From: a virus
Taxonomy: Duplodnaviria > Caudoviricetes
Virus record (IMG/VR): IMGVR_UViG_3300048598_000020
Span: 1-26,353 of that record
Length of the DNA: 26,353 nt
Strand: one strand, 5' to 3'
Shown here: positions 164-18,230 of the stretch, one piece after another
Position numbering within the stretch: the first letter of the stretch is position 1
How the letters are laid out: each line of letters begins with the position of its first letter
The notes under the pieces: model-generated
The model's input: only the letters and a program-made list of their open reading frames with translations
Told to the model about the DNA's origin: nothing
Databases searched by the model: none
Translations under genes and position numbers: made by a program

Positions 164-208
164 GATGTTACTTTCTGTTGTGTTACGAAGTGCCGTGGGT
201 TGTAGTTG

Positions 209-244
209 TTAGTATCAATAGATCACGGTCTCTACTGATACTAA
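209..244 (-). other. 14-bp hairpin in the leader of the 163..1 gene
   Basis: Minus strand TTAGTATCAGTAGA-gaccgtga-TCTATTGATACTAA; fully paired (one G-U) only on the minus-strand transcript. Confidence 0.65.
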
Positions 245-301
245 GAGATTTACACAAATCTCAGAGTATTTCTGATATTTTCACACTTTGCAAAACTTTT
301 T

Positions 302-1129
302 TTATGAAGCAAACACCTCTCTACCAATCTCCTGTAGTCGGTTATCGTTGCGCACCAAATGCCGCATATTAGCAATACACCTCCTAGCTGCATGCTCACC
401 CATTAGTGGGGCTAAATACTCTACTAAGTGTACTACCCTACCTGTAGGCTCTTGCTTGATACCCTGCAGGATGGCCTCTATTTGGTCGTCAGATAGCTCT
501 AGACGCTCCTGCAGGCACTGTATGACATGCTTATACCACTCAACTCTGATCTGCTCTTCGTGGGCCTCTGAGACCTCTCTGTCCTCAATATAGTCCATCC
601 AGGTCCGATTGTCGGTGTTATCATCATATACAGGCGCGTCCAGAGCCATCTTAATGATAGGCGGAACTTCGGGGACATCCTCCTCAGCCTCACCGCGCAT
701 ACGAGCAGCATAGCGGTGCTCCATAGTCTTGGCATGTGCTGCTATGTTGGCATCGTGCTCGCACAGCCACTGCCACAGCATGCGTCTAGTATTAAGTACT
801 ACCAGTGTGATCAGCCTAGTACCCAGATCAATTCGGTGATCTCTTATAGCTTGTAGTGTAGCCAGTTCAGCTATACCCGATAGCTCTCTCAACCGTGCAG
901 GATTACATTGGTTACGTTTAGCGATAAAGTGCCGTGCTGCTAGTACATTGCTGTAAAAGAGCAAGTCTCTAGCTGTCTCATCTCCTGCCTGTGCCTGTAG
1001 CACTAGCTGTTGCTCATCTTCGAGGGTGCACCTGAGCCAAGGGGCGTTGACGATGGCAGGAACTTGCTTACCTAGGTCAGTAGTATATCTTGTTGTACGC
1101 ATATGCATACAAGATAGGGTCTGATGCAT
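302..1129 (-). CDS. Divergent sigma70-family-like protein
   Basis: EQQLVLQAQAGDETARDLLFYSN resembles regions 1.2/2.1 (GD..AR..L..sN); LQAIRDHRIDLGTRLITL aligns to A..kFD...G.rFsTY; MALDAPVYDDNTDNRTWMDYIED resembles region 3.2. Start could be a later Met. Confidence 0.75.
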   Translation of the reverse strand: MHQTLSCMHMRTTRYTTDLGKQVPAIVNAPWLRCTLEDEQQLVLQAQAGDETARDLLFYSNVLAARHFIAKRNQCNPARLRELSGIAELATLQAIRDHRIDLGTRLITLVVLNTRRMLWQWLCEHDANIAAHAKTMEHRYAARMRGEAEEDVPEVPPIIKMALDAPVYDDNTDNRTWMDYIEDREVSEAHEEQIRVEWYKHVIQCLQERLELSDDQIEAILQGIKQEPTGRVVHLVEYLAPLMGEHAARRCIANMRHLVRNDNRLQEIGREVFAS

Positions 1130-1163: not shown

Positions 1164-1655
1164 TTATCCTGTATACCTAGTGCTAGCTTGTTTCTTATGT
1201 GCAGCTTTGTATTTATTGTATGTAGATTTATTCGACAGAAGATCTCCATTAGCTAGTGCCTTATTAAGACAATATCTAGATCCAAGTCTCTTTCGACATT
1301 CCATAATATAAGAACATTCGATAGCTTTTAGCTGCTGCTCCGAATGTCCATAAGCTAATATGGTATATGTAATAGTAGGACCACCGAATTGCTGTGCTCT
1401 AGCTATTACAGGCTTGACATAGTTACTGCTAGTAGTATATGTCTTCCAGGAATTTCCTTTGCCAAAAGCCTTTGATCCAACATACTCGTCAGCAATGGCA
1501 GATCTCTCGTGCTTGATCGTAACCCTGTAGACATACCCGTGAAGCCCCTGCTCCTTAGCTGTCTGGGGATCCAGCCCACAGTAGATACCTGTGCTAGGCA
1601 GTACCACAGTGCTCGCGTCTCCAAAGGTCTCTGGTTTCTGTTGTCTCTTAGCCAT
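1164..1655 (-). CDS. GIY-YIG-like (Seg-type) free-standing endonuclease
   Basis: GYVYRVT...EYVGSK motif pair, WKTYTTSS, later E (AIECSY) and N (CLNK) placed as in the GIY-YIG fold. Confidence 0.65.
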   Translation of the reverse strand: MAKRQQKPETFGDASTVVLPSTGIYCGLDPQTAKEQGLHGYVYRVTIKHERSAIADEYVGSKAFGKGNSWKTYTTSSNYVKPVIARAQQFGGPTITYTILAYGHSEQQLKAIECSYIMECRKRLGSRYCLNKALANGDLLSNKSTYNKYKAAHKKQASTRYTG

Positions 1656-1840
1656 ACCAAGAGATTGTCACACAATCTCGCTTGTGCTACTGTCTTTGCT
1701 TCTGTTCTGCAAGTTTCTTCAATCTATCAACATTCTATCAAGGCCACGGACTGTAGATGCAAAAACTCGGTTTTGCAGAGCTTCACACGAGAAAATTTCT
1801 CCTGATCTGTTTTTTTTTCTTACATGTAAAACAGTCCTAT

Positions 1841-1866
1841 AACCCCCCTAACCCCCCACAACCCCA
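1841..1866. repeat. Three tandem C-run units (AACCCCCC-T-AACCCCCC-AC-AACCCC)
   Basis: Read directly: aaccccccta accccccaca acccca. Confidence 0.8.
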
Positions 1867-1945
1867 CTTAATTCAGGTACATTTGTCAAGTTTTTACTGC
1901 TCATATGTACACTACTGCTTATTTGAGTAACATTTTGAGTGTTTC

Positions 1946-2157
1946 AAACGCGTAAACGAATCAGTACAAAAATAGTCTACAATAGAAACATTTTGAACCA
2001 CATATAATAGAGTATTTTGTAAGTTGTTTACGCGGCGTTTATATCCGCCAACCTAGTTACACAATAGGATTAGTAGATAAATGCAAAGCAGAATCGGGCA
2101 TTCTGCCATGAATCGGGCACACATTCGGGCATTTTGCCCGTAAACAAAACGTAAACA
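1946..2157. repeat. Imperfect long inverted repeat plus short iterated motifs; candidate replication origin
   Basis: CGCGTAAAC 1949-1957 / GTTTACGCG 2026-2034; inner TACAAAAATAGTCTA / TAGAGTATTTTGTA; CGTAAACA at 2139 and 2150; TCGGGCA three times in 2091-2131. AT-rich, non-coding, upstream of helicase/primase. Confidence 0.5.
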
Positions 2158-2205
2158 TATGCTACAGAATTCTGTACTTATATTGGCATACTACTCGCTT
2201 TATAT

Positions 2206-2314
2206 GTTGTTGTCTGAAGCTCATGCCCGAGCATCAACGACTACAGCCGCAAGGCTAGCCTGGTATGTATGTAGTGATGGGGCATCGTCACTACCTCTAC
2301 ATACCAGGCTTTTT
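2206..2314 (+). ncRNA. Structured leader RNA 1: kissing-loop hairpins with terminator-like end
   Basis: GCTC-[ATGCCC]-GAGC (2219-2232, extendable outward); AGCC-[GCAA]-GGCT GNRA hairpin (2245-2256); AGCCTGGTATGTA-t-GTAGTGATG-[GGGCAT]-CGTCACTAC-ctc-TACATACCAGGCT then TTTT (2257-2314). Confidence 0.75.
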
Positions 2315-2334
2315 GTTTTCTCCAAAGGAATTAT

Positions 2335-4260
2335 ATGACATTACAAGAATTAGCTGATAAAGGCGTCTTTACAAAAGAAGCATTAGCAGCAGATAAACGC
2401 GCAATGATATCTAATATCAATGCTGGTGTAGATCCACACATGGGGTGTGTTGCGTGGATCAATAATAGAGATAAGTACATCGACGAGCTGGGGTTCGCGC
2501 CTACATTAAAAGATCTATTGTCTGTGAATGTTAATACGATTGCTGGTATAGATTATATTGATAACAAACCAATAAACACAGCAGCTAGATTAGCAAAACA
2601 AGCTGCCGATCTACTAGTTAGACTAGGTCCTGGATTTACGTTATCCCAAATTATTGATGCATTGACTCCTCCAGATGTTGATAAAGATCCACATGACATG
2701 GGTACAATAAATGACGTCTCAGAGCAAGTGCTAGATGCGTGTGGAGTGGAGTACAATTATGCTAAGTCTAAATATCGTAAGCGTTGTGTTGATGCTCATG
2801 GTACTGTTACTTATGTTGACCTATCTCCTGACACGTTTGCCACAGAAGCTCTAGTACACGCGGGAGTCTTCGCGGTGCAGTCTGGATCCCCCTACAGCCC
2901 TAAGCTTGTATTGGACAACATCCAGCGCATCCAAAATGAGCGCAGAATTAAAGACATCCAAGATCTGCAACAAGAGCTACATTATGATCCAAGGTATATT
3001 GACTTTGCTGACTCGTATTTGCGTCAAGAGTATGCCTACATGCAGATTAATGAGCCTATAGATTGTTTTCTGACTGTCAGAAAACAATGGCTTGGTATGA
3101 TCAAGCGTAGTCTGTACAGCCTCGGTTGGGGTAACTGGTATAACATATGCCTTGCTTACAAAGGTCGTCAGGGCATAGGCAAGAGTATGTACTTCAAAAA
3201 AACTCTCGAACCTTTGTTTCGTACCATGCTTAATATGTCAGCAACTATGACAGATATTTGTGATGAGCGGAGTGCAGACATGCTGCAGAACACCTTTGTA
3301 ACTATACTTGAGGAGCTGTCTGTAAACGATCAGATAGAGCGTGCAGGTACCCAAGCTACACAAGCCGCTGCACAGCTTAAGAAGGTTCTGACGAGCCAGC
3401 GCTTGACACGTCGCAGGCTCGGTACACACGTACAAGACGAGATTGAGATCAAAACCGTCTTTGCATCTGTGGCTAATGTCGACCTAAATGATGTTGTTAT
3501 GGACCAGACGGGTATGCGTAGATTTTTCCAGCTCACCTCATTAGCCACAGAGCCATGGTATGTCAAAAATCCAGAAATGGCTGCAAAGCTACAAGATGCT
3601 GATAAGGTTATAGGTCTATTTCGCGGAATTGACGAAAATCTACCACAAGGTTACTGGTATCCTGGATGCGATACTTGGGACGAGATTGCAGCTATACAAG
3701 ATACATATATCAGGCACAGTGACGCCTGGGAGTATCTGCAGGAGCACTGGGCACCAGACCCAGAAGGAGCTGTAAAACTTGCTGATATGCACGCTGACTA
3801 TCTACAATGGCGCAAAAAAGGTGGAGAAGATAAATCGTTTCCGCTTGCCCTCAACAGAGGATTCCCACGCGAAGCTCTTGCATTATATGGAGATGATGTA
3901 CGTGTGCACGTTAATGGGCAATCTAGATACCGTCTCAAGCGCATTAAAGAGACAGCATCACTGCCAGTCTGGACTCCTGGCCTAGGAGCGCCAAAGGCAC
4001 CTGCTACGCCTTTGCCCATCAGCTTCCAGGATTTTACCAATCCTGCTACAACCAAGCCTTTGCCTCCTCCTAAGACGGTGGCACAAGCCCAGGCCCAAGT
4101 AGTAACAACAACACCGGAAGCTGGTCGTCCTCCTGTACCAGACCTTAGTAATACACCTGTATCAGATCTAGCTGTTCCTGGGCACGCTTTTGACGATATT
4201 CCTATCAACCTCTTACCTGCTGATCTTCGCATTGACCCACGCTTCTCACAAGGCTTTTAA
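2335..4260 (+). CDS. VapE-like / SF3-type P-loop DNA helicase with Pro-rich C-terminal tail
   Basis: Walker A GRQGIGKS, Walker B TILEEL, FASVAN and DQTGMRRFF (D.TG.RRF typical of VapE family); AAGGA RBS upstream. Confidence 0.85.
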   Translation: MTLQELADKGVFTKEALAADKRAMISNINAGVDPHMGCVAWINNRDKYIDELGFAPTLKDLLSVNVNTIAGIDYIDNKPINTAARLAKQAADLLVRLGPGFTLSQIIDALTPPDVDKDPHDMGTINDVSEQVLDACGVEYNYAKSKYRKRCVDAHGTVTYVDLSPDTFATEALVHAGVFAVQSGSPYSPKLVLDNIQRIQNERRIKDIQDLQQELHYDPRYIDFADSYLRQEYAYMQINEPIDCFLTVRKQWLGMIKRSLYSLGWGNWYNICLAYKGRQGIGKSMYFKKTLEPLFRTMLNMSATMTDICDERSADMLQNTFVTILEELSVNDQIERAGTQATQAAAQLKKVLTSQRLTRRRLGTHVQDEIEIKTVFASVANVDLNDVVMDQTGMRRFFQLTSLATEPWYVKNPEMAAKLQDADKVIGLFRGIDENLPQGYWYPGCDTWDEIAAIQDTYIRHSDAWEYLQEHWAPDPEGAVKLADMHADYLQWRKKGGEDKSFPLALNRGFPREALALYGDDVRVHVNGQSRYRLKRIKETASLPVWTPGLGAPKAPATPLPISFQDFTNPATTKPLPPPKTVAQAQAQVVTTTPEAGRPPVPDLSNTPVSDLAVPGHAFDDIPINLLPADLRIDPRFSQGF

Positions 4261-4261
4261 T

Positions 4262-5137
4262 ATGCTATACAAGACTAATAAGTATGCCAAAGAATGGCAG
4301 CAGTACACGCAAGACCAGGCTTGGGATTACTTCTTTCAAATTTTGCCTCAACCTATAAGCGTAGACAAAGACAACTGCCCTGTATATATGTTTGCCCATG
4401 CAGACGGTGACAGGCACGACATATCTACCTGCACAGACATCTATGCCATCTTACTAGACTACGAGGACGGTACTACTCCAGAGCAGTTTGTCAGGCAGTA
4501 CAGCGATTTACAGGCTTACTGGTACACTAGTAAGTCACACACACCAGCTAGCCCAAGGTTTCGTGTTGTACTCCCTCTAATGGAGCCTATAGCCTATGAC
4601 ACTATACATAACCCAGAAGCAAAGGCGGCTCTGCAGCAGTACTTTCCTGGCAATGACGCTACATCTTATACTAATCTACAGTGTGTACCTAATAGAGGAC
4701 CCTACTATGCCTGGGGATACAATCTAGGAGAGTGCTACAGCCTAGCCAGGATCAAGCCTATACTGGAGTCACCTGAGTTCAAGTGCCAACGGCGCTCAAA
4801 TTTGAGCGCCCTGAACTCTGTATCTGAGTACAAGCGTGTAGACGACTATACCTCTTATGCCTGTGCTGTGCGTAAGGCGCACCTGGACAAACTTCAAACG
4901 CTCCCTAGAGCTGCTGGGCAATCTAGCTATAGCGAGTATTGTAGCTTGGTAGGATCAATGTTACGGGTACACGCTAATGGCCAATGGATCTGGGAGCCCC
5001 AAGACATCATTAACACCGTGTACGCCTGGAGACCTGAGCCAAGCATATACAAGATGATCTGTAACTTTGCTTCAAGGCGGCTCCTGTTGCCGCCCCAGAA
5101 GCCAGCGGTAAAGACATTTTCTGGGCTTGGAAAATGA
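4262..5137 (+). CDS. Primase/polymerase-like (AEP-type) protein
   Basis: ILLDYEDG and YTSKSHTPASPRFRVVLPL resemble phage primase N-terminal motifs. Start set at the in-frame ATG 4262, right after the helicase stop, rather than 4190. Confidence 0.7.
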   Translation: MLYKTNKYAKEWQQYTQDQAWDYFFQILPQPISVDKDNCPVYMFAHADGDRHDISTCTDIYAILLDYEDGTTPEQFVRQYSDLQAYWYTSKSHTPASPRFRVVLPLMEPIAYDTIHNPEAKAALQQYFPGNDATSYTNLQCVPNRGPYYAWGYNLGECYSLARIKPILESPEFKCQRRSNLSALNSVSEYKRVDDYTSYACAVRKAHLDKLQTLPRAAGQSSYSEYCSLVGSMLRVHANGQWIWEPQDIINTVYAWRPEPSIYKMICNFASRRLLLPPQKPAVKTFSGLGK

Positions 5138-5712
5138 CTATGCGATCAAAAGTAAGCATTGTGCAAGGCGTTGGTATTAATGACGCAACTACTTCTGTAT
5201 ACCATAAGGGTTTTCCAAATGCAGATTACGCAGCATGGTCCGATATGTTAATGAGATGTTATTGCGAGACATATCAAAAAAGCTATCCAACATATAAAGG
5301 GTGTAGCGTCTGTGCAGAGTGGTTAAGGTTCTCAACATTTCGAATATGGTATAGTACAAACTATAAGGAAGGGTTTGAATTAGATAAAGACCTTCTTGTA
5401 CCGGGAAATAAGGTATACTCACCAGACACATGCCGATATGTCCCACATTACATCAACTCATTGTTGTTGTCTAGTAATTCTCGTAGAGGAGAATATCCAT
5501 TAGGTGTGTCGAAAAGCTACAATCTATACTTAGCGTCTTGTCGGTCATCTACTGGCAAGAGACTTACACAGACGTTTTCGACAGTTGATGAAGCTGCTTC
5601 CTGGTACAAACAAACCAAGAAGCGAGTAATCAAAGAGCAAGCTATCCAGGCTTTCCTAGACAACGCGATCAAGACAGATGTTTACTTGGCTCTCGTAAGA
5701 CGTGAGTTCTGA
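5134..5712 (+). CDS. HNH-like homing endonuclease (copy 1)
   Basis: GVGIND, W..ML.RCY, YPTYKGCSVC.EW..F, LDKD...GNK.YSP..C..VP..IN pattern of a common phage HNH-like family; ATGA overlap with the primase stop. Confidence 0.8.
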   Translation: MTMRSKVSIVQGVGINDATTSVYHKGFPNADYAAWSDMLMRCYCETYQKSYPTYKGCSVCAEWLRFSTFRIWYSTNYKEGFELDKDLLVPGNKVYSPDTCRYVPHYINSLLLSSNSRRGEYPLGVSKSYNLYLASCRSSTGKRLTQTFSTVDEAASWYKQTKKRVIKEQAIQAFLDNAIKTDVYLALVRREF

Positions 5713-5736
5713 TTTATTCTCAAAAAGTTTTGCAAA

Positions 5737-5778
5737 ATGAAGAAAACCCTAGCCAAACTCAATTTTTGATAGTATCTT
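5737..5778 (+). promoter_or_regulatory. Sigma70-type promoter TAGCCA-17-TATCTT with A-rich upstream box
   Basis: -35 at 5750-5755, -10 at 5773-5778; shares ATGAAGAAAA, spacing and TATCTTT with the promoter at 17986-18028; predicted start coincides with the hairpin at 5784. Confidence 0.6.
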
Positions 5779-5783
5779 TTATT

Positions 5784-5876
5784 AAGAGCTGCTGACCCAG
5801 CTCTTCCGGTTAACTCTTGAGGCTCCAAGCCGTCCGATGGTCAGATCGGGCATAAGTCTTGGGGCCTTCTTTTTTT
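5784..5876 (+). ncRNA. Structured leader RNA 2: kissing-loop hairpins with terminator-like end
   Basis: AAGAGCTG-[CTGACC]-CAGCTCTT (5784-5805); AGGCTCCAAG-cc-GTCCGAT-[GGTCAG]-ATCGGGC-ataagt-CTTGGGGCCT then TCTTTTTTT (5820-5876). Confidence 0.75.
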
Positions 5877-5890
5877 GAAGGAACTGAACA

Positions 5891-6187
5891 ATGACTATCT
5901 ACAACATCCAATTCGCACCGACCCTTGAAGACCTTGATGACACTAAGTATGGACTTGCACAGGGTGGTACTGGCGTATGGCGTATTGATGGCGGTATTCG
6001 TGGCAAAAAAGAGATCATCGCCAACATCCGTAAGTACGCTCGGAAGCATCTGCATGAGGCCAAAAAGACTGAGCGTCCTGACATGCCTGATTTCTTTTTT
6101 GTCCGTGCTTACAAGCTGTACTACCTGGACAGCTACACTGGTGCTGGTGTGTGGCAGGCTGCTAATGTCGAGGGAACTATCAAGTGA
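5891..6187 (+). CDS. Hypothetical protein (98 aa)
   Basis: ORF with GAAGGAA RBS directly after leader RNA 2; GTGA overlap with next gene. Confidence 0.75.
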   Translation: MTIYNIQFAPTLEDLDDTKYGLAQGGTGVWRIDGGIRGKKEIIANIRKYARKHLHEAKKTERPDMPDFFFVRAYKLYYLDSYTGAGVWQAANVEGTIK

Positions 6188-6747
6188 GATCAGGTGTTTA
6201 CAGACACGGAATAAACGATGTAAGCGACTTTACTTGGGTGGATGGAAAGATGCCGCGAGATCTTAGAACGTGGTATAATATGCTGGAGCGCTGCTATTCG
6301 GAAAAATCTCACTTACATCGCCCTACCTATGTCGGCTGCTCTGTCTGTCCAGAGTGGTTGTACTTCTCACAGTTTAAGGCATGGTATGACGAGAATTATC
6401 GGGAAGGGTTCCAGTTGGACAAAGACATTTTGGTTCCAGGCAACAAGATCTACTCGCCTGAATCTTGTCGGTATGTGCCTCCATATATAAATAGCCTACT
6501 TCTTGATTGTGGTGCTTCTCGCGGCGAATTGCCCTTAGGCATAGACAGGAATAGGACGGCATTCAGGGCCGCTTGTAGTAATAGACAAGGAAAGAGGGTT
6601 TCCAGAAATTTCGGTACAGTGGAAGATGCTGTCGCCTGGTACAAAGAAACCAAAAAGTGCATCGTTAAACAACAGGCTATCCACGCATTCCTGGCTAATG
6701 AGATTAAGAGTGATGTTTATCTTGCTCTAGTACAGAGGAATTTCTAA
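6184..6747 (+). CDS. HNH-like homing endonuclease (copy 2)
   Basis: Same motifs as 5134..5712 and a closely similar C-terminus (QAIHAFLANEIKSDVYLALVQRNF vs QAIQAFLDNAIKTDVYLALVRREF). Confidence 0.8.
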   Translation: MRSGVYRHGINDVSDFTWVDGKMPRDLRTWYNMLERCYSEKSHLHRPTYVGCSVCPEWLYFSQFKAWYDENYREGFQLDKDILVPGNKIYSPESCRYVPPYINSLLLDCGASRGELPLGIDRNRTAFRAACSNRQGKRVSRNFGTVEDAVAWYKETKKCIVKQQAIHAFLANEIKSDVYLALVQRNF

Positions 6748-6790
6748 TACCATACCGTGAGGCTGAACCTCTTAAAATAAGGAATCGAAC

Positions 6791-6946
6791 ATGACAAATT
6801 ACCTGACACCATCCGAGATTGAGGAGCTGCGCAAAGACAAGCAGGCTATCACAGCACAGTCTGATAAGCTGTGTGAGATATTCCAGGAGCAGCGGGAAGA
6901 AGAAGATCAGCCTGACATTGAGAGCATCTATGAGGCCCTCAAATGA
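6791..6946 (+). CDS. Small acidic hypothetical protein (51 aa, MTNYLTPSEIEELRKDKQAITAQSDKLCEIFQEQREEEDQPDIESIYEALK)
   Basis: Read by hand; TAAGGAA RBS; ATGA overlap with 6943 ORF. Confidence 0.75.
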   Translation: MTNYLTPSEIEELRKDKQAITAQSDKLCEIFQEQREEEDQPDIESIYEALK

Positions 6947-7257
6947 GCCACGTCGAATCAGATAGTGAAAAGCTCAAACGCCTGCTTAGGGAAATAGCAA
7001 CCCTTATGCAGGAATGCAACGACAGTACTTTATGGCATTGTCGTACCGTACTGTCAACCATCTATCAGTGGTTGTTATATGAGGATGTCAATACATCTGC
7101 TGTAATAGATATGATCAACACAATGACACGCCATTTTCAAGGGCTGCGCGAGACCTATAAAGGCGAATGGCAAGCGGACGAATTAGCTGTACGTCTGGTA
7201 GACTTGGCAAACGACTGCTTAGAGTATGGCGTGCAAACATTAGGTAGAGGTAAGTAA
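6943..7257 (+). CDS. Hypothetical protein (104 aa)
   Basis: Translationally coupled ORF, last of the rightward unit. Confidence 0.7.
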   Translation: MSHVESDSEKLKRLLREIATLMQECNDSTLWHCRTVLSTIYQWLLYEDVNTSAVIDMINTMTRHFQGLRETYKGEWQADELAVRLVDLANDCLEYGVQTLGRGK

Positions 7258-8643: not shown

Positions 8644-8777
8644 CGCCTTTTCTTAGCTTTATCGGAAGCAACGTACTCCTTGCCTACTTTGATGCTAATT
8701 CCGGCTTGTTTGGCAAATTTTGGATTATGTGCAGAAATTTGCATAAATCTTTCCTGTTTTTTACTTTTTGATGGCAT
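8640..8777 (-). CDS. Small basic phage protein (45 aa, MPSKSKKQERFMQISAHNPKFAKQAGISIKVGKEYVASDKAKKRR)
   Basis: ATG at 8777 with AGGAG RBS; resembles MPS.S.kQ..FM...AHNp.FAK..G proteins I recall from phage genomes. ORF-track start 8855 is inside the HNH gene. Confidence 0.75.
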   Translation of the reverse strand: MPSKSKKQERFMQISAHNPKFAKQAGISIKVGKEYVASDKAKKRR

Positions 8778-9255
8778 TTTTTCTCCTATAGTACTCTTTT
8801 TCCCAATTGCAATTGCAGCACAATAATTGAACGCGATCTTTTCCAACAACTCCATTTAATATATCGTTAAGAAATTTTGCATTACATTTATTATATTTTT
8901 TCCTATCTGAAGCTCCGTCATCATTAATATGATCAATAGCTAGAACAATTGGATTAGAATTACCACATTTATTACATTTGCCGCCTAAAAACTCAATAAC
9001 TTTTAATCTATGGGCTTCTCTCCACTCAGTTGATCTTTTATCAGATTTACTTTTATTGTTTTGGTAATACTGCTTACGATATTCTATTTTTTCTTCTATT
9101 GTTTTATGTGTTTTAGTTTCCAAAAATTTATGTATACTACATTTTCTACAAATACTACCATGTTCTTTTCTTTTTTGAGAATAATAATCAGCTACTAGAT
9201 CTCTAGATTTATTGCATATTGGGCAAGTGACCGTTATTTTTGACTTACTTGGCAT
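8761..9255 (-). CDS. HNH endonuclease with N-terminal zinc finger (AT-rich insertion)
   Basis: CPIC...CRKC, LGGKCNKCG, LAIDHIN.DG, QLLC.NCN; probable start ATG 9255 (MPSKSKITV), overlapping the upstream small ORF stop; visibly AT-richer than flanks. Confidence 0.85.
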   Translation of the reverse strand: MPSKSKITVTCPICNKSRDLVADYYSQKRKEHGSICRKCSIHKFLETKTHKTIEEKIEYRKQYYQNNKSKSDKRSTEWREAHRLKVIEFLGGKCNKCGNSNPIVLAIDHINDDGASDRKKYNKCNAKFLNDILNGVVGKDRVQLLCCNCNWEKEYYRRKNAIKK

Positions 9256-9340
9256 TCTTCTTAGCCTTGGCGTTATGGGCTTTGCGTGCCTTCTCATCAG
9301 CTTCGTACGCAGCATTACTGATAATTGTAACATTTGCCAT
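9245..9340 (-). CDS. Small basic protein (31 aa, MANVTIISNAAYEADEKARKAHNAKAKKNAK)
   Basis: Read by hand; AAGGAG RBS 6 nt upstream of ATG; fills the gap between 9356 and 9255. Confidence 0.7.
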   Translation of the reverse strand: MANVTIISNAAYEADEKARKAHNAKAKKNAK

Positions 9341-9355
9341 CCTGTACTCCTTGGT

Positions 9356-9934
9356 TTAACCACCTACTACAGATATATATAGGTTTCCGATGTCACCAGC
9401 TGTCATGGTCATTGTTGCTGATGTGGAGAATTGCCAATCAGGAGCATACCCAGGACAATCATTAGATCCACTTAATGCATGTTGTGCAACGTATCGCTCA
9501 CCAACATAAAAATAATAGGTTGTACCAGCAACAAGAGATGGTTTAGTCGTATATGTTTTTGTGATAGTATACTGAGTATAGGATCCAAGCACGGAACCTG
9601 CATTGATAGCAATTCCTGTAGCACCAGAGATACAAGCGTTAGTTACAGGTGTCAGAGTGGTACCTGATAGTGTCCAGATGCCACATATCACATTATTGAC
9701 AGTATTACAATCATGTACCACACTAAACGATGATACACTCATATTGCTTGTAGGCGTATAAGCTGTAAGGTAGGTATTTCCCGAAGGAAGAGCTATCCAA
9801 GACGCCGTAGATGGTGCTTTCCATACAAGAGTGGACCCAAGATAAATGCTTTTAGCAACGCTTGACCCGTAGCCAAGGGATGTTATGCTTTTGGCTACAC
9901 CTGAACTATTAACATAAACAAGTGATGCTGTCAT
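9356..9934 (-). CDS. Putative fibre tip / receptor-binding beta protein
   Basis: N-terminal KSIYLGSTLVWK motif of phage tail-fibre partner proteins; Ser/Thr/Gly-rich; TAATG-coupled to the mini-collagen. Confidence 0.6.
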   Translation of the reverse strand: MTASLVYVNSSGVAKSITSLGYGSSVAKSIYLGSTLVWKAPSTASWIALPSGNTYLTAYTPTSNMSVSSFSVVHDCNTVNNVICGIWTLSGTTLTPVTNACISGATGIAINAGSVLGSYTQYTITKTYTTKPSLVAGTTYYFYVGERYVAQHALSGSNDCPGYAPDWQFSTSATMTMTAGDIGNLYISVVGG

Positions 9935-17985: not shown

Positions 17986-18028
17986 ATGAAGAAAAACTCT
18001 TGACAGAGCCGATTTTCTAGTGTATCTT
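17986..18028 (+). promoter_or_regulatory. Sigma70-type promoter TTGACA-17-TATCTT
   Basis: Consensus -35 at 18000-18005, -10 at 18023-18028, upstream ATGAAGAAAA. Confidence 0.75.
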
Positions 18029-18092
18029 TAGAAAAGTCGAACAACTTCTTCTTGTCGCACAACTCGCACAACTCTAACAACGGAACAACATC

Positions 18093-18230
18093 ATGGACGC
18101 AGGCGCAGTAGTAGCAATCGCATTACTCTTAGGATTTGCTCTAGTAGCAAAGTTTGGCTTAATCATTGTAGTACTGATGTGGGCAGATGACAAGCAAGAC
18201 AAACGGCAGCAACGGCAGCAACAAAAGTAA
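18093..18230 (+). CDS. Small membrane protein antisense to the late genes (45 aa, MDAGAVVAIALLLGFALVAKFGLIIVVLMWADDKQDKRQQRQQQK)
   Basis: Read by hand; fills the 17971-18234 gap, has its own promoter, ~28-residue hydrophobic stretch then polar tail. Confidence 0.7.
   Translation: MDAGAVVAIALLLGFALVAKFGLIIVVLMWADDKQDKRQQRQQQK

Follow-up and report, generated by a model that had tools for sequence, protein, structure and literature searches.

What is encoded by a pair of short phage DNA elements in each of which the loop of a 5' hairpin is complementary to the loop of a terminator-like hairpin standing directly in front of a gene? The elements lie in a stretch of 26,353 nucleotides (here called the window), which is the whole of a linear virus record rated ~37% complete by a tool estimate. 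The phage is podovirus-like. Its minus strand carries the genes for a P22-type coat, the tail, and lysis, and its plus strand carries a block made up of a helicase, a primase-like ORF, HNH genes, and small ORFs. The following genes border the two elements.

2335 to 4260, plus strand: VapE-like helicase/ATPase (PF05272, E = 1e-7; weak primase/helicase PHROG matches), the first gene after element 1
4262 to 5137, plus strand: primase-like ORF between the elements (weak match to phrog_9765, E = 7e-6 over 51 residues; four homologues at 67 to 91% identity)
5134 to 5712, plus strand: HNH endonuclease gene (phrog_953, E = 1e-65), just upstream of the promoter block and missing in some relatives
5891 to 6187, plus strand: 98-amino-acid (aa) ORF without assigned function, the first gene after element 2 (two homologues, 70% and 57%)

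Neither profile searches nor the ESM Atlas gave a family for the 98-aa ORF, and neither this ORF nor the helicase had a confirmed match when used as a single-protein query against viral contigs. Additional endonuclease-like genes (one GIY-YIG-like and two further HNH-like) are located at 1164 to 1655 (minus strand), 6184 to 6747, and 8761 to 9363 (minus strand); that at 6184 to 6747 is absent from the relative X2. A relative of the primase was not found in genome contigs, and 0 of 11 hits there to patterns that fixed the CTGACC/GGTCAG code or its flanks were structured; thus, no prophage and no host were found.

The downstream element, element 2, has the order 8-bp hairpin, linker, two-part stem, T7 tract, and RBS, and it follows a promoter-like site. 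Its parts are listed here.

5723 to 5735, plus strand: conserved upstream block AAAAGTTTTGCAA, UP-element- or operator-like
5750 to 5778, plus strand: predicted promoter (TAGCCA, 17 nt, and the -10-like TATCTT at 5773 to 5778), with the start inferred near 5784
5784 to 5791 paired with 5798 to 5805, plus strand: hairpin P1 (8 of 8 pairs Watson-Crick), with loop 1, CTGACC, at 5792 to 5797
5806 to 5818, plus strand: linker, predicted to be unpaired (13 to 15 nt across three related copies)
5819 to 5868, plus strand: terminator-like hairpin P2, with a basal stem (5819 to 5830 with 5856 to 5868) and an apical 7-bp stem (5832 to 5838 with 5845 to 5851)
5870 to 5876, plus strand: T7 tract, preceded by TTC; together with P2, the second-ranked terminator-like fold of the window
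5877 to 5882, plus strand: RBS GAAGGA, with the ATG at 5891

The preliminary description had placed the two hairpins, the T7 tract, and the RBS at 5784 to 5876, and it was correct to the base. Loop 2 of P2, GGTCAG (5839 to 5844), is the exact reverse complement of loop 1, and the asymmetric internal loop of P2 contains a conserved TAAGT (5853 to 5857). The predicted minimum free energy of the element is -37.3 kcal/mol (z = -2.69), and 1 of 200 shuffles folded as well. The -10 box reported just in front of P1 corresponds to the -10-like TATCTT; the promoter scored 8 of 12, below the threshold of the consensus scan, which therefore did not list it. If TATCTT is a -10 box, we infer that transcription would start at the first base of P1. 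The related phage G001, described below, has a counterpart of this promoter (TAGCCA-17-TACTTT, L121:1033-1061), and the AAAAGTTTTGCAA block recurs in both G001 elements at a distance of 50 to 51 nt upstream of the -10-like hexamer, with a third copy at window position 300 (minus strand). That third copy belongs to another promoter-like region (window 164 to 300 and L263:16238-16370, both minus strand), which carries the same AAAAGTTTTG block and a conserved TGTGTAAATCTCTTAGTAT and precedes a gene cut by the window start; in the window copy of this region, a hairpin loop could pair with a downstream CACGG, and this pairing is not retained in G001. The hexamer TATCTT also stands 17 nt behind a perfect TTGACA at position 18000, where the resulting near-consensus promoter (18000 to 18230) drives a 45-aa ORF opposed to the structural-gene direction.

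The same description had referred to a first leader of this design, and such an element was found upstream of the helicase gene, directly in front of its ATG at 2335.

2216 to 2320 (approximately), plus strand: element 1, with loop 1, ATGCCC, at 2223 to 2228, a GCAA hairpin at 2245 to 2256, and a T tract at 2310 to 2319
2257 to 2310, plus strand: 22-bp bulged long stem of element 1, with loop 2, GGGCAT, at 2280 to 2285

Element 1 was detected only with looser stem settings, having been missed by stricter hairpin scans. Its loops are complementary at 6 of 6 positions, it is the strongest terminator-like fold in the window (z = -6.86; 0 of 200 shuffles as good), and its 22-nt linker includes the GCAA hairpin. 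The two leaders were said to match in position; they do so relative to the RBS but not relative to a promoter, as none was identified upstream of element 1. A 59-aa ORF (2159 to 2338) that runs over element 1 was rejected as a leader peptide because its start codon is changed in the relatives X1, X2, and X4. In close relatives, element 1 is nearly unchanged: record 9 of X10 has 1 difference in 2213 to 2387, and record 22 of X4 has 13 differences in 2135 to 2628, at least 9 of which, among those listed, fall within 2157 to 2212. Upstream of element 1, positions 2094 to 2140 hold three direct TCGGGCA repeats, the last base of which varies in relatives, and an inverted CGGGC-N5-GCCCG; X4 contains a comparable piece between the primase and the promoter. 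These repeats are possibly iterons or an operator. The apical 3' strand of element 2 (5846 to 5853) is an exact 8-nt complement of element 1 positions 2223 to 2230 (loop 1 plus two stem bases), which may be due to chance or may reflect the same DNA motif as the TCGGGCA repeats.

Could two such loop pairs arise by accident among ordinary terminators? The figure of 1 in 4,096 originally offered for a matching 6-nt loop pair ignores multiple testing. We used a descriptor, written after both elements had been seen, that called for two hairpins with complementary 6- to 7-nt loops within 100 nt and a T tract. It gave 2 matches in the window and none in 300 shuffles. Without the T-tract term, shuffles averaged 0.26 matches, and 9 of 300 had 2. 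In a background set of 227 other loci (571 kb), from which the phage's own relatives and 11 genome loci were excluded, the descriptor returned 1 AT-rich match and, over 12 rounds of shuffling, 8 matches. The elements are also the top two terminator-like (hairpin-plus-T) folds in both the window and G001, each with the stable hairpin and directly adjoining U-rich tract of an intrinsic terminator; they escape a simple terminator scan, which requires a short contiguous stem. A skeptic may object that the descriptor was fitted to known elements and that few independent genomes are available. Against accident stand the 300 empty shuffles, a rate of about 1 match per Mb elsewhere, and, in the relatives described next, complementarity that is held across changing loops, since matched loop changes contradict chance. 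We therefore consider accidental complementarity extremely improbable.

Alignment of the primase-like ORF with its homologues led to one related phage, G001 (G002 is near-identical and represents the same phage), whose capsid and primase-like proteins are close to those of the window (87% and 71%, respectively). G001 carries two elements, both behind the same promoter-like block. One (L121:1068-1158; CTGACC/GGTCAG) precedes the G001 helicase, and the other (L121:3811-3905), with the 7-nt loops CTGACCC/GGGTCAG, follows the primase-like gene. Between element 2 and L121:1068-1158, the P2 stem has undergone five two-sided and three one-sided changes with 0 of 18 pairs broken, whereas P1 of the G001 copy keeps 5 of 8 pairs (-1.2 kcal/mol). 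In L121:3811-3905, P1 (5 bp) and the apical stem (6 bp) are different, and the loop-loop helix ("kiss") contains an extra C-G pair, for a total of 7 bp. Element 2 and both G001 copies have in common CUGACC, GGUCAG, the 8-nt spacing, and UAAGUC at the internal loop, the last of which is lacking at the internal loop of element 1. In the four full elements from two phages, the predicted loop complementarity is complete (6/6 or 7/7) over three codes and two loop lengths.

Contigs from four sequencing runs, aligned at 80% identity, extended the comparison. The X4 contig has a C inserted after 5793, and in its loose end beyond 5825, GGTCGAG is enclosed by a 7-bp stem. X4 thus probably carries a fifth element and a fourth code with a matched insertion (CTCGACC/GGTCGAG), its loop 1 being read from the indel alone, with 40 of 462 differences listed. 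In X2, positions 5794 to 5880 are replaced by 90 other letters, with the flanks on both sides conserved. The sample of two independent genomes plus run contigs is too small for a covariation statistic. Nevertheless, the suggestion of a structure-defined family with a varying loop code was borne out by the four full elements, in which stems change in matched pairs. The further suggestion that the loops are "barcoded" was not. The two codes of the window are orthogonal (-1.2 and -2.5 kcal/mol for cross-pairing versus -8.6 and -8.0 kcal/mol for their own pairing), but the two G001 copies cross-pair (-8.0 and -8.8 kcal/mol), which rules out orthogonality as a conserved rule.

The sense strand folds better than the antisense strand in all four full copies, and the folds contain one to four G-U pairs. 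Together, these features indicate that the element acts as RNA, and they make a single-stranded-DNA role unlikely. On the evidence of the sequences compared, we regard the structure and the loop pairing as real, and we conclude that this is a conserved, predicted RNA element with a variable loop code that occurs twice per genome within a small clade of phages and belongs to no catalogued family.

Searches for the element in catalogues and other phages were negative. None of the 4,227 models of Rfam 15 matched anywhere in the window at the gathering score, and at E ≤ 10 the region from 1600 to 7000 gave two chance hits, both outside the elements. Blastn of 5700 to 5950 against 50,697 phage records returned short chance hits only (best E, 0.8). 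Three pattern scans of viral contigs, all of which fixed either the CTGACC/GGTCAG code or the flanks and so were blind to other codes, found the full design in 0 of 119 loci (60 of 64 parts), in 3 of 15 loci (all G001 or G002), and in 1 of 119 loci (49 of 64 parts; the G002 copy). The element was not seen in four loci of distant helicase-family phages (three distinct, one cut off upstream) or in three phages related by head proteins (P26218, VvAW1, and MW202557), and two further loci (L268 and L271) do not extend to the replication module. Perfect palindromes of more than 110 nt in L276 and L282, two contigs of a Phototrophicaceae MAG, were a chance pattern match. No RNA run was among those listed as containing phage sequence. 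A literature search, judged by title and abstract and with subscription journals mostly outside its scope, found no description of a phage kissing-loop terminator.

What might such an element do? In all four copies, the T tract is followed by the RBS within 0 to 5 nt, and the distance from the start of the T tract to the ATG is 21 to 25 nt. With the RBS directly behind the T tract, the next gene, including the helicase in both phages, would need read-through. In each of the four copies, 22 to 24 nt separate loop 2 from the end of the hairpin; hence, the kiss could form before the polymerase reaches the U tract. We propose, at somewhat less than even confidence, that the element attenuates transcription: by hindering the terminator from closing, the kiss would let part of the polymerases read into the next gene. 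From the sequences, an attenuator role is plausible. Loop 2 would exit the polymerase just before the U tract is made, and the kiss could form first. A rod would then be built by stacking of P1, the kiss helix, and the apical stem, and the 13- to 15-nt linker would barely span this rod plus a straight basal stem, leaving the base of the terminator strained; the strain would be avoided if the conserved UAAGU internal loop bends. The element could give a constant ratio of read-through, or it could respond to an antisense RNA or to a factor from phage or host that breaks the kiss or bends the hinge.

The numbers behind this model are rough. In three copies, the rod plus a straight basal stem measures 78 to 90 Å and the linker reaches 83 to 94 Å, a back-of-the-envelope sum in which a bent internal loop removes the strain; by the same arithmetic, element 1 (linker reach of 136 Å versus 98 Å) would not be strained. 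The weak P1 of L121:1068-1158 indicates that not every copy has a rigid P1. The full terminator fold is 7.5 to 26 kcal/mol more stable than a nested helix formed between loop 1 and loop 2, although the kiss itself is beyond ViennaRNA scoring. A plain terminator, its loop 4 nt long, also stands in G001 immediately in front of a sigma-like gene's RBS; terminators at an RBS thus need no kiss in that phage.

Since the terminator fold dominates the full-length RNA in all four copies, the element might instead terminate efficiently and yield a compact, stable RNA of ~93 nt. The kiss would then act as a tertiary lock or favor termination, a separate antiterminator protein on the polymerase would turn on the downstream genes, much as Q does at lambda PR'-6S-tR', and the short RNA may serve as a decoy or form loop-linked dimers. 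With P1 at the inferred +1 and the RNA end in the U tract, both ends of such an RNA would be protected. The conserved UAAGU loop and the GCAA tetraloop of element 1, which we take to resemble tertiary-contact modules, also count in its favor, as do the phage's sigma-like proteins and small ORFs without family. Sigma-70-like proteins are encoded at window 302 to 1129, L263:15007-15573, and L263:16341-17141 (all minus strand); the assignment is clear for the 188-aa G001 ORF (TIGR02937 above the cutoff) and weak for the other two (E of about 1e-3 to 1e-4). However, the presence of two copies per genome, each fixed before a gene start, suits a cis-acting role, 11-mer matches of the elements elsewhere in the genomes were single and scattered and revealed no target, and protein-family searches of the phage genes detected neither an antiterminator family nor a Q-like gene. 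We consider this reading, a terminated small RNA with protein antitermination, rather unlikely, although it is the strongest of the alternatives. The two-part stem could also be mainly a site for RNase III or other processing, like the RNase III sites in T7 early RNA, with cleavage freeing the next RBS and the kiss tuning cleavage or mRNA stability. P2, at 17 to 22 bp with an asymmetric internal loop, is far longer than an ordinary terminator requires, and in all four copies the RBS comes directly after P2 and the T tract; nevertheless, the U-rich tract right behind the stem, also present in all four, is a terminator feature that processing would not need, and we think it quite doubtful that processing is the main function.

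The loop complementarity could, finally, be the start of a longer rearrangement, with loop 1 acting as a toehold whose pairing with loop 2 would lengthen into a nested helix and so disrupt the apical stem (zipper- or antisense-like), or it could be an immunity or incompatibility code read by an antisense RNA from the other strand or from a coinfecting phage, in the manner of P4 CI or pT181. For L121:1068-1158, the fold predicted at the preterminator stage consists of an 11-bp extension of the pairing between the loops (-18.8 kcal/mol); for L121:3811-3905, no more than 0.6 kcal/mol separates the nested helix from the free fold. The orthogonality of the window's codes would also be in keeping with such reading. 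In element 2, however, the pairing stops at the loops and the nested state is 11.7 kcal/mol worse, and the cross-pairing of the G001 copies runs counter to a specific code; a consensus promoter scan found no opposite-strand promoter near element 2. The three TCGGGCA copies upstream of element 1 match, as complements, its loop 1 and two bases of the stem, but two of the three lose the match in relatives (A to T at 2100 and 2131), and the repeats do not track the loop code: the similar piece in X4 precedes the element 2 promoter, where the code differs. Nor is TCGGGCW overrepresented (6 in the window, a number reached in 16 of 100 shuffles). These observations make a strand-exchange or antisense switch improbable, and we retain the kiss-controlled attenuator as the working model.

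Several known systems share parts of this design. Pistol, twister, and HDV-like ribozymes and the k-turn were set aside, as their topology differs and no Rfam match was obtained. In lambda PR'-6S-tR' with Q and in HK022 put, a promoter-proximal two-hairpin RNA or terminator gates downstream phage genes; we know of no kiss with a terminator loop in either. ColE1 RNA I/RNA II and pT181-type antisense systems use fully complementary 6- to 7-nt loops in replication control, with the kiss formed between two RNAs, whereas both phage loops lie within one short leader.

The proposed novelty of the element stands insofar as Rfam contains no match, but its topology is that proposed for the guanidine-IV riboswitch (GGAM-1), which is described as an RNA of about 90 to 105 nt with two hairpins, the second an intrinsic terminator, and kissing loops (PMC7736828, PMC11611296). 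Steric antitermination via the linker has been proposed for that riboswitch (PMC7736828) and is backed by smFRET (PMC11611296). The published descriptions report a guanidine-dependent kiss, highly conserved loop bases needed for binding, and, mostly, sugE-type exporter genes downstream (PMC7736828, PMC11611296). The phage element resembles it in that the 5' hairpin loop is complementary to the terminator loop (predicted; 6/6 or 7/7 in four copies). It differs in that all loop bases are Watson-Crick paired, the code and length vary, no conserved ligand-pocket bases are present, and the downstream genes encode VapE-like helicases and small ORFs without family, with none of the sugE/emrE type. 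Going by the published text descriptions, we conclude that the element is guanidine-IV-like in topology and not a member of that class. The mechanism that we propose has a known analogue in this riboswitch.

Two other described leaders bear comparison. In phage P4, CI is a processed antisense RNA that pairs with two flanking sequences (seqA-seqC immunity; PMC4825925). There, as in the phage studied here, RNA-RNA pairing in a leader gates termination before replication genes, the P4 pairing being known and ours predicted (PMC4825925); in our phage, unlike in the P4 account, the loop pairs with the terminator's own loop within about 95 nt, and no Rfam match was obtained. As possible flanking targets of the P4 type, element 1 has the upstream repeats complementary to its loop 1, which vary in relatives and also precede an element with another code; element 2 has none. 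The zipper attenuator cATT of pLS20 is a ligand-free, 456-nt leader in which, as described, the pairing lengthens a long central stem and prevents both hairpins from forming (PMC13401043). Like the phage element, cATT is a leader attenuator of a mobile element with an upstream stem-loop complementary to part of the terminator, including its loop. In contrast with that description, the phage elements have no central stem, the linker of element 2 and the G001 copies is 13 to 15 nt long, and in element 2 the complementarity is confined to the loops; the corresponding zipper state, disfavored in element 2, is nearly equal in energy in the two G001 copies.

Over their aligned part, the helicases of the window and G001 share only about 22% identity, yet an element heads the helicase in both; the exchanged helicases (L121:1169-2872 versus 2335 to 4260) retain a common C-terminal VWTPGLGAPK segment. 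Window positions 5158 to 5878, comprising the HNH gene, the promoter block, and the element, align as one 70% piece to G001 440 to 1161 (L121). In the window, this piece follows the primase-like gene; in G001, it precedes the helicase. X1 and X4 lack HNH at the window's site, which in X1 is bridged by a 5130-to-5724 joint. The HNH gene may move between two paralogous promoter-element sites, carrying the element along, and such movement would explain the shared code of the two G001 copies.

If the kiss controls termination, these elements would be a natural, ligand-free, and reprogrammable version of the mechanism proposed for guanidine-IV, and the natural variants (kisses of 6 and 7 bp, P1 stems that are strong or weak, and different linkers) would make that mechanism directly testable. 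A compact terminator tunable via its loops would also be of use in synthetic biology. If the RNA instead terminates fully, it would be an uncatalogued compact phage small RNA. We offer more tentatively the broader idea that the elements represent a ligand-free class of phage attenuators defined by shape, in which a 5' hairpin is locked to the terminator tip by any fully complementary pair of 6- to 7-nt loops and in which the length of the linker, together with a flexible internal loop, determines or switches how much read-through enters replication operons. Lacking a sequence signature, such a class could have originated or spread broadly among phages and gone unnoticed by sequence-based RNA catalogues. 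If the kiss does control termination, phages would possess an RNA-only layer of control over their replication genes that is invisible to homology searches.
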